Both the position numbers and the translations under genes were made by a program. Below are positions 19,781 to 58,774 of a DNA stretch of 64,000 nt, piece after piece; the stretch's first letter is position 1; each line of letters begins with the position of its first letter. The notes beneath the pieces are model-generated. The model ran no database searches and had not been told where the DNA came from. It saw nothing but the letters and a program-made list of their open reading frames with translations. This stretch comes from Antechinus flavipes (Eukaryota). The stretch is from NCBI RefSeq assembly GCF_016432865.1, contig NC_067399.1:224502001-224566000 (forward strand), in the 5' to 3' direction.

Positions 19781-22700
19781 TCAGGAAGCTTTGATTTTGC
19801 GAAGCTGGGTCCCCCAGAGCAAGATGGAGATGCAAAACGTGGTAGTGCCCAGAATTCCAGAGAACATGAGGAGTGGGAAGGAGCCCTGTAAGCAACATGC
19901 CGGGAGAAACAAAAGTCAGCAGAGCCTTTCAAAGACAAATCTATCTTTCTCATTCCCCCTCACCCAGGCACATCTCTCGAAACAGCAGTTCTCTCCTGGA
20001 GGTGTCTTCAGTGCAGCTGAATCCAACCTACTTCTTGTCCCAAACCCACTTCCCACACCCTAGTGCTCAATGCTCATCCCCAAGTTCATTCACATCCCCA
20101 GTCTTCACCTCACGTAAACACTTGTAGCCATGGAAGCCAGTAGTACAAAGACACTGGAAGAGGCCTGGGCCATCAGAGACACAATATGCATTCTCAGGAC
20201 ACAAAGCTGGCAGGAGAAAAACTGTATTAATGTCAGACCGATTAGATAGTTGAGACTCTCTATACTTCTGGTCCAACCCCAAATCCTTCAAACTGTTTTC
20301 CAGGCCAGCAGCAACAATAGAAAGGATGTGAATAACTTATCTACATAGGGTAAGGATATATGAAATATAAGAAAGCTCTTAAAAATATGCCTGCTAATTA
20401 AAATCAGGGGCTAATTTCCATTTTTTAAAGGGTAGAGTCTAAGGGAAGTCAGACAGTTCCTAGAATTACAGAAGTGAAAACTTGTACCTGGCTCTACAGT
20501 ACTATTGCACTGAATTTGCCCATGGCAGGTACAGCTGTCAGGGCCACAGGTGATATTATCCCACGCATTACTTCCTCCAGGACAGTCTACTTTTCGCGGC
20601 AGCACCCTGAATATAATACATAGTTGTTATACCATGCAGTCAGATATTGCTGATCTTATTATATGTTTCCTATTTTACTCACAGTATCTGGAGCTCAGTG
20701 AAGTTACGAAAGACTGAGGGAGATATATTCAGGAAGGGGTTGGCTTGTAAGTCCCTGCAAATCAAAAACACCCATTGTTACTATGCATTACCTAGGGAAG
20801 CTCCCTAATTCTACTTCTGAGAAGTGAATATTTCTCTCTTATATTTGATAAATATTGTGTTAGAACCAAGATTTCCTCCATCCCCTTTTTTTTCTACTTC
20901 CTCATCCAGAAATCAACTTTTGGGGAGTTACCCAGGTCTAGATCTAATTCAGACAGTAAAAGAAATTCTAAATTTTAGCTAATAGGTGTATTCCTGCTCA
21001 TGTGTTTGCTCAGAGAGGCTTGGGAAAATGTTGATTCTATTATCAAAGATAGGTGATTTGAAAATTGATATCATTTTGACCATTTGAGTGACTTGTCATA
21101 CTCCTCATGACAGACCACCACCTATTGTGTAAAACCAATCAGAGGTGATTACATATCCCTCAGGAATACTTCCTCTTTGAAGAACATATAAACTGTAACC
21201 ACAATGCTGTAGAGGGCTGAACTCTGCAGAAGTATACTTGAAACGAGGTATTAACTCAGCAGAAGTGATGAGATAGATTCTCTAGTTCACATATATACTT
21301 AGTATGGTGATGTAATGGTTCTCTAGTTTATACAATATTCAATATGCTATAATGATATAATTGTACTAAAGTATATAAGGGTGGAGAAGGGCTGGAAATG
21401 ATTCATTCCATTTTTGACCATCCTCCTGATGGCTCTCCTGCCTCCTCCACTTCTACACTAAGATCAAGACTGGGTTAAACTGTGGCAGATATAGATTGTA
21501 AAGAAGACAGACTGTGAAAGAGACAATAAAAACTTTAGACTCTATTCCTGACCATTCTCATGGTGTCTATCCTGCTGAGACCAAGGCCCATCCAAAGGAC
21601 CTCCAAAAAGCTAGCCAGAACATTACACACTGCCATTAGGGGTCTTTAGTTTGAAACAGTCAAAGGACTATCCAGATTGATAACCTGAGAACAGGTAAAA
21701 GGACCCCCAGATTTCTTCTGGAAGGGCTCTCCCCCTCCCCACTTCTTCCCCTACACTTATATCCTGTCAGAGAAAGGGATCTGAGAGCACTTACAGAACA
21801 ATGGCAGAATGGGCCTCAGTAAAGAGTGGGTCCAGTTCTTTCAGGGAACAGTTCTGAAGATCGAGTCTAAAAGAAAAGAAAGGTCAGTGTGATCATGTCC
21901 CTCTTGGCCCAGCCACCAGCAGGACTGTTTTACCACCTGTCTTTTTTGTCTCCTTTTCCAACTAGTCATTGTTTTTGCAGACAACACACCCTAAGTGCTG
22001 GGCTTCATATTAATCGTTACTTCCTGGGACCAACCTGTCAGAATATCTGTGCCTATTAGGAAATAAGGAAAAGGTGCTGTACTTCTCATTTAGAAAAAAG
22101 TTTCTCATATTTTACCAGATTACTGCTGGCTTATTAAAGGATGGTACAAAATTCAAGTTAATAAAAATTGAATTTTTGTTTTTCCTCAAGTACAGATGTG
22201 AATATCCAACTAAACTGCAAAATCCTCTGGATTTAAGACTCTGCTTTAGTATTGTTTTTTCTTCAATATCTTTTATATTTCTTCAACAAATATGTATTGA
22301 AAACCAATCATGTGCTGCGTATTACTATGTAATAGTATTGTGAGCTATTAAACTGGTATGTGTAAAAAGATTCCTGATCTCAAGGAGTTTACAATGTATT
22401 AGAGGGAAAGGAAAAGAACAAGACACACACACAAAATTATTTAGGAATTTGAGAACAACATAAAAATATCATAAAGAAGCATTTGATATCATGTGTTACA
22501 GAGAGATGGATCAGGATTAGCTAGAATAATCAGTGAAGACTTCATAAGAGAAATGAGACAAGCTAAGATGTATATAGAATATAACCAGTATTGTGGGAAG
22601 AAAGGAAAAAAAAAGCATTAACAATCTGGCTACAGCCATATTCATATCACAGAGCAGTTGTTAGAAAAAAAGCTTGTGTCTAGAATGCCAGGCTCAAAAA

Positions 22701-25700
22701 TTTATGCTTTATTCTGGTGGCATAAGAAATATTAAAGTTGATCTAGCAACAAAATAAGCAATATTTCAAAGGACAGAAAGACTAAAGGAAGGAAGACCAA
22801 TTGGGGACTACCAAAACATGCATTCAAGGCTAGATTATAATAATGCCAATGGAAATGGAAAGTAATAGGCTGAAATATGTGAAAAACAGAATAAAGGAAG
22901 AAGGGACAAACTTGATGAACTTACTGGGGCAAAGAAGAGGGAGGAGTCAAAATGATTGGAAGGATATCTTCAGACTGTATTTGAAGCAATTCCATGAAAA
23001 ATTAAACAAGTAACTGGAAATATACATATGATAATATTTTGTCCTTAAAGAATACATTTATTGGTATTCACGTGAAAAAACGCAAGAGAAAGAAATCGTT
23101 ACTGTTGAAATTTTAAAAATAATTTATCTTAAGTTATTTTAGGAAACAAAAAACAAAAAACACATTTATGGATCAAGATAGTTAATACAATCACTAGATA
23201 AAAAAACAACAAAAAAGGCTCAATTTCAAATAGAAAATTCAAAATGCAAAGATGCATAGTCATAAAACTCAGTTCAAATCAATTACTGTTTTCTATTCAG
23301 ATGAAATTGTACAGAGACATTCTGTAACGTTCAAAGGAGGATACATTTCTACACTTGAGACATGTGGTCTTTTTTGCTTTACCACCCAATATTAGCTTTA
23401 GTGGCAAAACAAAAGATATAGATATATATTTTACAAATTTAACAGCAACTATTAATTGTCTATAAAGCTCCTAGGTGGCAAAGTGAATAGGTGGATAGAC
23501 CTAGAATCAATTATCTGAATTCAAAGGTGGCCTCAGGAACCGTCTAGCTGTGTGACCCTAAGTCATTTAAGCTAATTTGCCTTAGTTGCCTGAACAAATG
23601 AGCTGGGGAAGGAAATGGCAAACTATTCCATTATCTTTGCCAAGAAAACCCCAAATCAGATAAGACTGAAAAAACTAAACTTGCTAGGCAAAAGTAACAT
23701 GATACTGCTTTTGTTTAGTAGTTATATAATCAAATAAGACAGGTGGTCCATAGGGCTTTCCCTACCCAAAAGGACATATAGATTAAAAGGTATAAGGACT
23801 ATGTATCTGTAGAGTTGTATTTTGTTATGGGCCCGAACTCTGAACTTGAAACAAAGGATTCTTACAAGGTACTAAGTCAGTGGAATTGATAGAGACAATA
23901 GTTATCTAATTTAGCATGGTTCAGTATGACTGATTTAATCCTATAAGGAGATGTTATGGGCCAGAACTTGAAACAAGGTATTAAGTGGAACTGAAGAGAC
24001 AATGGCTAAATTTAGTTTAGCATAGATTTAATCCTACAACAAATAATGGTGATATAATGATTGGTATATACTCAGTGTGGGGCATATAAACAAGAAGTTC
24101 TCAGGGCTAGAAAGACAAGCGCACTAGAAGCTCTCAGAGCCTCAGACAGCTATTAAAGTTCAAATCCTTTATAATCTCTTTCCAAGTCTTGTCTCCTTTC
24201 CTGCGGCCCAGTTAGCTTTCTTAGAGGCCTTCTGTAGTCTTGGTTCTGAGTACTTGAACTGTTGGCTTCTGAATCTCCCGGACTGAATCCTGGCTGAGGT
24301 TCCTAGCTTATATATGCTCTCTTAAAGGTGTGAATCTTGTAGAACTATAGTAAATACTAAGTACATGTACTGAACTAGAGAATTGCTATCATTGTCTCTA
24401 TCAATTCCACTGACTTAGCACCTTGTTTCAATCCTTTGTTTCAAATTCAGAGTTCTGGACCATAACAGTATTTTGAAAATCAAAAATGATGTTTCAAATC
24501 ATACAACTGTATATAATCACACAGCCTGTTCCTATTTCTTACCCCACAATGGTGCCCTGTTTGGTCAGACAGCAACGTGCGTTCAGCTTTAACTCTTGTC
24601 TCTGTTTACAATAAAGGTCAACCTCTGACTTGTCATATACAGGCCCTGGACAGTATTTGCATATCTGCAGGATGTGAAGAATTAAGGACAGACAAGAAAA
24701 AAAAAAATGATCATAATGCTGACCACCAAATTCTTACCTTATAAAAGAACAAATTCCTACCTTAAAAAGGGACAATGAGATTGCATTATTTCATCATCTA
24801 ATATAGAAAAGTTAAATTCACACTCCAGATTCTCTGAAAGAGGCTCTACTCACCCCTCCCCACATTCTGGCCTGGAGAAGAACATATTCCTCTCTTTTTC
24901 CCTTCTTTTGTGTTAGGTATCAATTCTTTTATTGGGCAATACCCTTCAGAAACTATTCTCCACTCTTTCCAAATCTGAATCTGTTGATAAAAGTTCTTCA
25001 CCTACTTATATATTACCATTTAAAAATATTTATTAAATAAGTACAATAACTTTTAAAATGCAAACCTGTCAAATTGAGGAGACATAAAAGCCTTTTACAA
25101 GAACTCAATACTGGCAACATCCTACAGTTTTAGATCTGCATTAGAGGCAAGCATTTGTTCATGGAGAGTATGAGTTACCCATTAAAATGGTAAAGATAAA
25201 GAAGTGACATTTTAGGAAACTTTAAATTAATAATAGCAGTGTTAGTTCAGACCCATAGAAGGTTATAAAGTGATTTTTGGAGATCATTTCCTTCAACAGC
25301 CTCTGCCTCTAGACCTCAGATTTACTGGGGACCAGAGGTATCCCGGATGTTACTTTGGGTAAATCACTTAAATCTGTCCCTCCTAAACACAACTCAGATT
25401 ATACAATAGAAAGAGCATTGCCTCTGCAGTCCAAGGATCAATCGAATTCAAATTTTATCCTTTAAGTATAAAATACTCTTAAATTCCTGGTCCTCAAGTT
25501 TCCCCATCTGTAAAATGAAGTTGGATTCTGAGGCACCTTCTAGCTGTATAAGATCCCAAGACTAAATGGAAGGAAAGTGACTTGCCCAAGGTCATACAAC
25601 TAATTAAGTGTGAGTGAATAGAGATAGCTAAATAATGCAGGGTATAGAACAGGTCTTAAGACACCAGCTGTGTGACCCTGGCATGTCACTTGACCTCAGT

Positions 25701-54099: not shown

Positions 54100-55530
54100 T
54101 TTTTTTTTTTTTTAAAATTTTGAGATCACTTTCATATCTGAGATTCCATGATTTCATTTAAATTATTCAGGCAGATTTGTGAAGGGTGGATTGGAGGAAG
54201 GGGAAGCTGACTATAAATGGGAATCCATATTAGGAGGCTATTGCAATCATCCAGGTGAAAGGTTACAAGAGTCAGCACTAACGTGGTAGAAAAAAAAGAT
54301 ATGACTGAGTCCTTGAGACCTTGTCCCATTTAAGTTATCCCTGACATGTGGATAGAACATTCTTATAGATTTTGCACAGAAGTGATAGTGTCCATATGGG
54401 TCAATCCAAGAGAAATGACATGATATCAAAAGAAAAAAAAAATCTATGTTGGTTTTACCTGGTATTATTGTACTTCATTTTTGATTACTTGATTCTTCTA
54501 CTGCTGCTCCACAATCTCATCTCTCCTTTTTTCCATCTTTGTTAACCTATATCTGGAATATGTCTCCCCTTTGCATCCCTAGCCATTATTTTTAAATCCA
54601 AGTTGCAATTATTAAAATCCCAATTGAAATATTCATAGCAGTTCTTTTTGTAGCAAAAAAGTGTAAACTAAGTAGAAACCCAATAGTTGGAGAATGGTTA
54701 AACAAACTGTGGTATGTGAATATATATATATGAACTGTGAATATAAAGAATTTTGAAAAGTATGAGAAAGGTCTTTTACAAATGGATACAAAGAAAAGCA
54801 AGAAGAAAGAGAAAATCAATATACACCATGGGTATAATATAAATGAAAAAATAAACAACAATAAGAAACAATGCTATGGAATTATAACCAAATAGTCCTA
54901 AAGAAAAAATGAGAAAATATACTACTCTACCTTCTTTGCAGAGATAGACAAGGAGGGAGGGGATGTGAACCATCACATATATTATCAAAAGTGGTTTATG
55001 ATTTAGTTTTGTTAACCCTTCCCTACCTCCCTTCTTTTTAAAATACTCCTTATTGATATCTTTTGTTTTTAAATCATCTAGATTTTTTTTAAATAACTTT
55101 TTATTGACAGAACCCATGCCAGGGTAATTTTTTACAGCATTATCCCTTGCACTCACTTCTGTTCCGATTTTTCCCCTCCCTCCTTCCATTCCCTCCCTCA
55201 GATGGCAAGCAGTCCTTTACATGTTGAATAGGTTACAGTATATCCTAGATACAATATATGTGTACAGAACCGAACAGTTTTCTTGTTGCACAGGGAGAAT
55301 TGTATTCAGAAGGTAGAAATAATCCGGGAAGAAAAACAAAAATGCAAACAGTTTACATTCATTTCCCCATGTTCTTTCTTTGGGTGTAGCTGCTTCTGTC
55401 CATCCTTGATCAATTGAAACTGAATTAGCTCTCTTTATCGAAGAGATCCACTTCCATCAGAATACATCCTCAAACAGTATCAATGTTGAGGTATATAATG
55501 ATCTCCTAGTTCTGCTCATTTCACTTAGCA
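54100..55530 (-). mobile_element. Truncated L1 (55083-55530) plus ~970 bp of 3'-transduced sequence and poly(A)
   Basis: 17-bp TSD tatcccaaagagatctt at 54083-54099 and 55531-55547; T run at ~54098-54113. Confidence 0.85.
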
Positions 55531-56236
55531 TATCCCAAAGAGATCTTAAAGGAGGGAAAGGGACCTGTATGTGCAAGAATGTTTGTGGCAGATCTCTTTG
55601 ATCTGATTTCCAGAAACTGGAAACTGAGTGAATGCCCATCAATTGGAGAAAGGTTGGGTAAATTGTGATATATGAATATTATGGAATATTGTTGTTCTGT
55701 AAGAAATGACCATCAGGATGAATACAGAGAGGCTTGGAGAGATTTACAGGAACTGATGCTAAATGAAGTGAGTAGAACCAAGAGAACAATGTACATAGTA
55801 ATAAGATTATGTGATGAGCAACTGTGATGGACATGGCTCTCTTCAACAATGAGATGCTTCAAACCAATTCCAGTTGTTCAGTGATGAAGAGAGCCATCTA
55901 CACCCAGAGAGAGGACTGTGGGAACTGATTGTGGTTCACAATATAGCATTTCTACTCTTTCTGTTATTGTTTGCTTGCATTTTGTTTTCCTTCTCAGATT
56001 TTTTTTTCTTTCTAGATCCAATTTTTCTTGTGCAGCAAGATAGTGTATAAATATGTTTTTTTTTTGTGTGTATATATATATACACATATATATATGCATA
56101 TATATATATATGATTTAACATATTTAACATGTATTGGACTACCTGCCATCCTGGGAAGGGAATAAGGAGGGAAAAATTTGGAACAGCAAGGATCTGTTTG
56201 GAATCTTTGGACTTGGAAATTTGGAATTTGAAATTT

Positions 56237-58417
56237 TTTTAAAATAAGTTTTTATTGATAGAACCCATGCCAGGGTAATTTTTACAGCATTATCCCTTGC
56301 ACTCACTTCTGTTCCGATTTTTCCCCTCCCTCCCTCCACCCTCTCCCCCAGATGGCAAGTAGTCCTTCACATGTTGAATAGGTTACAGTATATCCTAGAT
56401 ACAATATATGTGTGCAGAACTGAACAGTTTTCTTGTTGCACAGGGAGAATTGTATTCAGAAAGTATAAATAACCCGGGAAGAAAAACAGAAATGAAAGCA
56501 GTTTATAGTCATTTCCCAGTGTTCTTTCTTTGGGTGTAGCTGCTTCTGTCCATTCTTGATCAATTGAAACTGAATTAGCTCTCTTTATCGAAGAGATCCA
56601 CTTCCATCAGAATATATCCTCAAACAGTATCGTTGTTGAGATATATAATGATCTCCTGGTTCTGCTCATTTCACTTGGCATCTGTTCATGTAAGTCTCGC
56701 CAGTCCTCTCTGTATTCATCCTACTGGTCATTTCTTACAGAACAATAATATTCCATAACATTCATATACCACAATTTACCCAACCATTCTCCAACTGATA
56801 GACATCCATTCATTTTCCAGTTTCTAGCCACTACAAACAGGGCTGCCACAAACATTTTGGCACATACAGGTCCCTTTCCCTTCCTTAGTATCTCTTTGAG
56901 ATATAAGCCCAGTAGTAGCACTGCTGGATCAAAGGGTATGCACAGTTTGATAACTTTTTGAGCATAGTTCCAAATTGCTCTCCAGAATGGCTGGATGTAT
57001 TCACAACTCCGCCAACAATGTATCAGTGTCCCTGTTTTCCCACATCCCTTCCAACATTCCACATTATCTTTCCCTATCACTCTAGCCAATCTGACAGGTG
57101 TGTAGTGGTATCTCAGAGTTGTCTTAATTTGCATTTCTCTGATTAATAATGATTTGGAGCATATTTTCATATGTCTATAAATAGTTTCAATTTCTTCGTC
57201 TGAGAATTGTCTGTTCATATCCTTTGACCATTTATCAATTGGAGAATGGTTTGATTTCTTATAAATTAGAGTCAATTCTATATATATTTTGGAAATGAGG
57301 CCTTTATCAGAACCTTTGATTGTAAAAATGTTTTCCCAGTTTATTGTTTCCCTTCTAACCCTGTCTGCATTTGTTTTGTTTGTACAAAAACTTTTCAATT
57401 TGATATAATCAAAATTTTCTATTTTGTGGTCAATAGTAATCTCTAGTTCTTCTTTGGTCATAAATTCCTCCCTCTTTCATAGGTCTGAGAGGTAAACTAT
57501 CCTATGCTCTTCCAATTTATTTATAATCTCATTCTTTATGCCTAGGGTCATGGACCCATTTTGACCTTATCTTGACATACGGTGTTAAGTGTGGGTCAAT
57601 GCCTAGTTTCTGCCATACTAATTTCCAATTTTCCCAGCAATTTTTGTCAAATAATGCGTTCTTATCCCAAAAACTGGGGTCTTTGGGTTTGTCAAACACT
57701 ATATTATTAAAGTTATTGGCTGTTTTGTCTTTTGAACCTAACCTATTCCATTGATCAACTAGTCTATTTCTTAGCCAATACCAGATAGTTTTAGTAACTG
57801 CTGCTTTATAATATAATTTTAGATCTGGTACAGCTAGGCCACTTTCATTTGATTTTTTTTTTTCATTAATTCACTTGAAATTCTTGACCTTTTGTTTTTC
57901 CATATGAACTTTGTTGTTATTTTTTCTAGTTCATCAAAGTAGTTTTTTGGGAATCTGATTGGTATAGCGCTAAATAAATAGATTAATTTAAGTAGTATTG
58001 TCATCTTTATTATATTTGCTCGCCCCATCCAAGAGCATTTAATATTTTTCCAATTGGTTAAATCAGACTTAATTTGTGTGGAAAGTGTTTTGTAGTTTTG
58101 CTCATAAAGTTTCTGATTTTCCCTTGGCAGATAGATTCCTAAATATACAATCAGTAGTTACTTTAAATGGAATTTCTTTTTGTAACTCTGTTGGGTTTTG
58201 TCAGTAATATATAAGAATGCTGATGACTTATGTGGGTTTATTTTGTATCCTGAAACTTTACTGAAGGTGTGGATTGTTTCTAATAACTTTTTAGTAGATT
58301 CTCTGGGGTTCTTTAAGTATACCATCATATCATCAGCAAAGAGTGATAATTTGGTTTCCTCATTGCCTATTCTTATTCCTTTAATCTCTTTCTCAACTCT
58401 TATTGCCAAAGCTAGCA
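56237..58417 (-). mobile_element. 5'-truncated LINE-1 (~2.2 kb): ORF2 C-terminal part and 3' UTR, non-functional
   Basis: ORF 56721-57461 is the L1 ORF2 C-terminus (HMKICSKSLLIREMQIKTTLRYHYTPVR, CWKGCGKTGTLIHCW zinc knuckle); upstream part frameshifted; TSD ttggaatttgaaattt at 56221-56236 and 58418-58433. Confidence 0.95.
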
Positions 58418-58519
58418 TTGGAATTTGAAATTTGGAAAGCAAGGATCAATGTTGAAAAATTACCTTTGCATATATTTTGTAAACAAAAAGCTTTAATTAA
58501 TTAAAAAAATCTGCGGGCT

Positions 58520-58774
58520 TGAATCCATATCAAGTCAAGGGGTGAAGTTTATTGTTATTGTAAGATAGGAGCCAAGGAAGGATTAGCAAAAAGCTGCTAG
58601 TTACCTAGTTTGTTTTTTGTTTTTCTCTCAGAATGGAGTAAATTTCTGGAATTATTCCCAATGTTTCAGGAATTTTTCTTGCCATCTTAAAATGACTAAC
58701 TGCCAAACTTTTTAGTCATTGCTCTCAAAACTTTGAGAATTTGCTAAGATGCTATTTTAGTTTTAATTAGCTGA

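Follow-up and report, generated by a model that had tools for sequence, protein, structure and literature searches.

A 645-bp element in an intron of the ATRAID gene of Antechinus flavipes consists of the 5' parts of two LTRs that face each other within a single exact 6-bp target-site duplication (TSD), and by analogy with other loci in the same genome it probably originated through plus-strand mis-priming, the product of which, a DNA molecule with U3 at either end, would have been integrated in a single step. The element spans positions 23823-24467 of the window (the whole 64,000-nucleotide stretch analyzed here, positions 224,502,001 to 224,566,000 of contig NC_067399.1), and the hexamer GTATTT, read directly from the sequence, abuts it on both flanks (23817-23822 and 24468-24473). 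The left part, on the plus strand, is the 5' 327 bp of an A-type LTR (23823-24149) and consists of U3, in which the start of the LTR is repeated internally at 23952, behind a remnant of a purine tract; its TATA box lies at 24085-24090 and the LTR breaks off about 60 bp past it. The right part, on the minus strand, is the 5' 325 bp (U3 and R) of a B-type LTR (24143-24467), with a TATA box at approximately 24308-24316 and with R running just beyond the poly(A)-signal position at 24168-24173, where the element has TATAAA and the copies have AATAAA, so that the signal is degenerate. The inner end of this part lies about 20-25 nt beyond the signal position, and the 3'-terminal ~100 bp of the LTR are missing. 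Both parts were delimited by comparison with family copies: A-type copies align up to 24149 and B-type copies from 24143, leaving a junction overlap of 7 nt (24143-24149) that is compatible with both A sense and B antisense, with a single mismatch to the B copies.

Both junctions with host DNA are exact LTR 5' termini, and because the two subfamilies share their 5' end the element carries a terminal inverted repeat, with 77-nt arms at 23823-23899 (plus) and 24391-24467 (minus) that are 91% complementary in an arm-against-arm comparison. The initial annotation had described two facing LTR 5' halves within a shared hexamer, inverted termini of ~77 bp and a TATA box in each half, and this description holds with corrections of 1 bp (a length of 645 rather than 646 bp, and a right LTR starting at 24467). 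The TG...CA termini and the TSD of family length are those of a solo LTR, but the element is not a U3-R-U5 unit of one orientation ending in the family U5 terminus, since its right end is a reversed 5' end; the family's genuine 3' (U5) end is unlike the sequence found there. The closeness of its length to that of A-type solo LTRs (about 640 bp) is regarded as coincidence. Neither a PBS nor a tRNA copy is present at the junction on either strand, and no third copy of GTATTT lies between the two halves, where the center of the element is itself missing. The TSD had also been said to match that of a solo LTR at 21208; the agreement extends to the 6-bp length, which is that of the family in 20 of 20 exact cases (80 5' ends sampled), but the solo LTR's own flanking copies, CAATGC and CACTGC, agree with each other at only five of six positions. 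This solo LTR (21208-21627) belongs to a more distant subfamily and lies in the next ATRAID intron.

Identity to the A-type copies is 91-94% for the left half (29 of 29 copies), and identity to the B-type copies is 89-92% for the right half (all 11 tested); with 89-94% identity to their nearest copies the two halves are equally old. Solo LTRs measure 572-706 bp in the A subfamily and about 427-442 bp in the B subfamily, and the parent LTRs are abundant, with 1,273 and 2,314 exact motif matches, the second count including internal repeats. The parent family has a tRNA-Lys(CTT)-type PBS behind its 5' LTRs, a purine tract before its 3' LTRs and a 6-bp TSD, a combination that we take, pol phylogeny aside, to be the signature of class II (ERVK/beta-like) ERVs; on these features the parent would be a class II-like ERV that used tRNA-Lys(CTT) as its primer. 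Solo LTRs of class II (betaretrovirus-like) ERVs are abundant in dasyurid genomes (PMC11334065), and the parent LTRs are like them in their 6-bp TSD, tRNA-Lys(CTT)-type PBS and purine tract; the terms 'inverted', 'target site' and 'tRNA' do not occur in the main text of that paper.

The element is a solitary, passive fossil, and nothing suggests that it was ever copied again. Its junction was found in one of 40 scored candidates (380 candidates in all) in the similarity search, and the genome-wide junction pattern gave 10 exact matches, one being the window element and the other nine ordinary LTRs. In public contigs from related species, unique flanking sequence runs into the left LTR end in two of four runs (organisms E and F; runs X9 and X14 have no left-flank cover) and into the right LTR end in all four (organisms D, E and F), at a flank divergence of about 3-6%. 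Because these contigs enter the same ends, the facing LTR ends are real and old rather than a product of assembly, and the element is older than the split from organisms D-F. No contig spanning the junction was present in any of the four runs (organisms B, D, E and F, including a close relative; 71-96% read, from filtered records with no positive control), and it is possible that the center differs between species or is lineage-specific. No empty site was seen in the public contigs of related species.

A survey of 327 LTR-bearing loci, drawn from 194 stretches of the first part of contig C1 together with loci found by similarity search, yielded 104 distinct TSD-bounded LTRs of the family, and as estimates from this sample 102 have a normal U5 end, one clearly ends in a reversed U3 (L274) and one is ambiguous (L189). 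The clear case, L274:296-1502 (C1:96321055-96322755), is an element with two U3 ends from the same LTR superfamily as that in the window, flanked on both sides by exact copies of GAAAAC. Both of its LTRs come from a single rare subfamily, and they agree at 358 of 396 positions. The reversed part comprises a whole LTR, then TTT, then an 18-nt copy of the PBS that matches the 3' nucleotides of tRNA-Lys(CTT) at 15 of 18 positions, the three differences all being transitions, and it stops where the homology of the first LTR ends. The ambiguous case (L189:1499-1980) has an exact TSD and an LTR that is cut short in R, its final 15-22 nt being similar to a reversed 5' end; it was left uncounted, since a local palindrome or a variant form of the 3' end may explain these nucleotides. 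The survey also showed an LTR 3' end with about 200 bp of flank in inverted duplication (L104:366-1079), and a segment of the window (55082-58561) that matches flanking sequence at as many as 20 of the fetched loci and is probably a long interspersed repeat.

A second group of related loci is provided by the 3' arm of tRNA-Lys with an encoded CCA, for which there are 35 genomic matches, 30 of them fetched. All 30 have an LTR followed by 41-76 nt of tRNA-Lys complement, the read-through having been selected for by the pattern, and in 10 of these 30 a reversed LTR 5' end lies downstream of the tRNA copy. Seven of the 10 are flanked by identical copies of a 6-bp TSD, a match expected by chance about once in 2,100 at any one locus; at an eighth the copies differ at one position, at a ninth they differ at two, and the tenth has no TSD. 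The inverted repeat at L360 is not an LTR end and was left out of this count. In the eight good cases (L343, L346, L348, L350, L351, L352, L353 and L361, on C1 and C3), a single 6-bp TSD encloses an LTR, 55-76 nt of tRNA-Lys(CTT) read-through and then a reversed 5' piece of an LTR, and the arms, 94-524 nt long, are 96-99% identical, which makes these loci younger than the window element. Every junction is different and two LTR families are involved; the tRNA-tailed two-headed loci are independent events of one kind. Three of them (L348, L350 and L361) have in common a piece of 160-190 bp that follows the tRNA copy and precedes the reversed arm. Its three versions are 92-98% identical to one another; we take the piece to be SINE-like, and it possibly derives from a template switch onto a co-packaged SINE RNA; L361 has a further ~600 bp of other sequence in this position. 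We note that at L345, L368 and L371 a second LTR, 98.5-99.8% identical to the first, lies in direct orientation beyond the tRNA read-through; these are provirus-like elements with a tRNA insert.

To account for the window element, A-type and B-type RNAs would have been packaged into the same particle, where plus strands primed at each polypurine tract would have annealed through the 7 complementary nucleotides and been extended to each other's U3 start. The product would be a short linear molecule ending in U3 on both sides, and integrase could have processed both ends to generate the normal 6-bp duplication, possibly with later trimming of the center. In the analogues, the trigger was plausibly that normal transfer failed once reverse transcriptase had read past m1A58; such read-through blocks normal plus-strand transfer (PMC11251516). 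A single integration is favored because both ends are exact LTR 5' termini within a TSD of family length, and because two unrelated TSDs would match by chance in only about 1/2,100 cases; for the 109 TSDs, direct counting gives 8/11,772 and a positional model about 1/2,088. One-step formation is favored because the analogous loci carry signatures of reverse transcription. The single integration of a chimeric DNA proposed in the initial annotation is thus the likeliest origin of the window copy, a probable one argued from its resemblance to L274 and the eight tRNA-tailed loci. Like the members of the two-U3 class, the window element has two outward-facing exact U3 termini and one normal TSD, but it departs from them in having no PBS or tRNA sequence at the junction, and its arms come from two subfamilies whereas those of all nine good analogues, eight of which were chosen for their tRNA tail, come from the same subfamily (90-99% identical). 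Because of these two differences we regard plus-strand mis-priming as probable and go no further. The 7-nt overlap is also compatible with microhomology repair, and is one of several 7-mers common to A and reversed B.

An alternative that appears unlikely, although it has genuine evidence in its favor, is a double insertion at the same site, in which an inverted B element entered the 3' TSD of A (or landed within 1-2 bases of it), both were reduced to solo LTRs, and the center of the near-palindrome so formed was deleted at the 7-nt repeat. Such a history would allow different subfamilies to meet without co-packaging, and Drosophila offers documented double insertions that retain the target site, among them two Rover elements in inverted orientation (PMC5932611). 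LTRs nested inversely in other LTRs occur at six of the 327 loci (L030, L085, L110, L114, L092 and L176), and those at L092 and L176 fall in the last 5-15 bp of the U5 end of another LTR; furthermore, the 3' halves of A and B are 72-83% alike, with the left break situated where that homology begins, and the lack of junction contigs in related species (filtered records, no positive control) is compatible with a later deletion. Against this, a double insertion demands exact register followed by a deletion of ~420 bp, and a one-step route is demonstrated elsewhere in the same genome. Three genome patterns also failed to find an intact pair in exact register: the head-to-tail LTR pair pattern had no matches, the tail-to-tail pattern had three matches with no LTR pair among them, and the head-to-head pattern had a single match, a 35-bp scrap. 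This last (L069:1486-1534; C6, near 68041461) consists of two LTR 5' ends in palindromic arrangement, spaced by 1 nt and flanked by a 7-bp repeat, and looks like a captured scrap of cDNA. L092 was considered as an intact shared-TSD precursor and rejected, because there one LTR, with a TSD of its own, entered the final bases of another in inverse orientation, and no further U5-U5 junctions of this type were found among 40 scored of 3,066 candidates. Inverse nesting within the superfamily (six of 327 loci) seems to exceed the expectation from LTR density.

It is improbable that two full-length cDNAs from one particle were paired crosswise by integrase, so that their U3 ends were inserted while their U5 ends were resected and joined by microhomology. 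Crosswise pairing does account for an exact U3 terminus at each end, for a single TSD and for a junction at microhomology, and concerted integration in vitro employs separate donor oligonucleotides (PMC11054761); from the window sequence alone it is indistinguishable from plus-strand mis-priming. However, no in vivo precedent was found in the literature searched, and the analogues indicate strong-stop DNA rather than full cDNAs. Very improbable is the fusion, by deletion, of two convergent LTRs inserted independently at separate sites, with the hexamers matching by chance. Convergent neighbors within 1.6 kb do exist (L054, L179 and L203, for example) and GTATTT is AT-rich, with a chance of about 1e-3 under the TSD model, but a coincidence of 1/1,000-1/2,100 is needed on top of a rare deletion, and no pair of convergent neighbors (L054, L179, L203 and others) shares a hexamer. 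Just as poorly placed are a MITE-like non-autonomous family, as raised in the initial annotation, and an assembly chimera, despite the MITE-like terminal inverted repeats (77 nt, 91%) and the absence of junction confirmation in related-species contigs (filtered records, no positive control), given that a family requires several copies with a common interior and different TSDs whereas this junction occurs once and no second locus carries it in either the similarity or the genome-wide pattern search, and that unique-flank contigs of related species enter the LTR 5' ends on the left (E, F) and the right (D, E, F).

The host intron belongs to ATRAID, which is encoded on the minus strand, and the flanking exons are both in one orientation: the coding exon upstream of the intron lies at 24543-24667, with its donor GT at 24542-24541, and the following exon at about 21865-21770. 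The distance of 74 nt between the element and the donor had been noted at the outset and is confirmed, the donor G being at 24542. The B half is oriented along the sense direction of ATRAID. An inversion with breakpoints inside two LTRs was rejected, as there is no reciprocal 3'-3' LTR product nearby and the orientation of the ATRAID exons is constant. The inverted arms are predicted to form a stem in the ATRAID pre-mRNA (-252 kcal/mol, z -9.4 against 20 shuffles), as would any comparable inverted pair; the initial annotation had proposed this stem as a possible ADAR substrate. The window copy, which is single and old and shows no sign of function, is most likely neutral for the host.

If the favored reading holds, facing LTR halves need not always reflect a nested insertion or a later deletion, and two-headed insertions generate inverted repeats within introns. 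There is an even chance, in our estimation, that the window element is a germ-line fossil of plus-on-plus priming between two co-packaged ERV subfamilies, that a mammalian retroviral integrase accepts two U3 ends in vivo with a normal TSD, and that two-headed elements constitute, as sample estimates, ~1% of the TSD-bounded LTRs of the family and about a quarter of those with tRNA read-through. If so, genomes would keep a countable record of failed second-strand transfers that were rescued for integration; the class would inform on the co-packaging of ERV RNAs and on the tolerance of integrase for two U3 ends in vivo, and would show how often the primer tRNA failed to halt reverse transcriptase. 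Annotation would break such elements into unrelated LTR fragments.

Within the literature searched, with most subscription papers and supplements outside it, we found no description of an integrated element with two U3 ends and a normal TSD; the available text of PMC9278108 reports asymmetric LTRs and inversions and describes no two-U3 proviruses. Several known systems resemble it in part. In the double insertions of McGurk and Barbash (2018; PMC5932611), inverted pairs of LTR elements share one target sequence, but the diagnostic given there, a copy of the target inside the junction, is absent from the window element. The aberrant HIV-1 and ASLV integrations of Varadarajan et al. (2016; PMC5041404) involve priming by a viral 3' end on other viral DNA, of either strand, through short homology, and in that account host enzymes join one of the ends, with duplications or deletions of large size; the window element has neither a non-integrase junction nor an abnormal duplication or deletion, and both of its ends are exact within a 6-bp TSD. 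The complex elements attributed to template switching by Sabot and Schulman (2007; PMC1950507) are chimeras of two co-packaged elements, formed during reverse transcription, that integrated once and are recognized by their TSDs, as is likewise proposed here, although they are described as having three LTRs, two internal regions, near-identical outer LTRs and apparently normal ends, whereas the window element has facing halves of different subfamilies, U3 at both ends and no internal region. The plus-strand strong-stop and tRNA read-through intermediates of PMC11251516 and PMC12789967 have the same U3-R-U5-PBS(-tRNA) make-up as L274 and the tRNA-tailed analogues; as far as their available text extends, these papers cover the failure of transfer and do not describe how a second U3 end, in inverted orientation, could rescue it for integration, and unlike such intermediates the window copy is without a PBS. 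Set beside these systems, the window element is a real single-copy fossil and a variant of known errors of reverse transcription, notable for joining two subfamilies.
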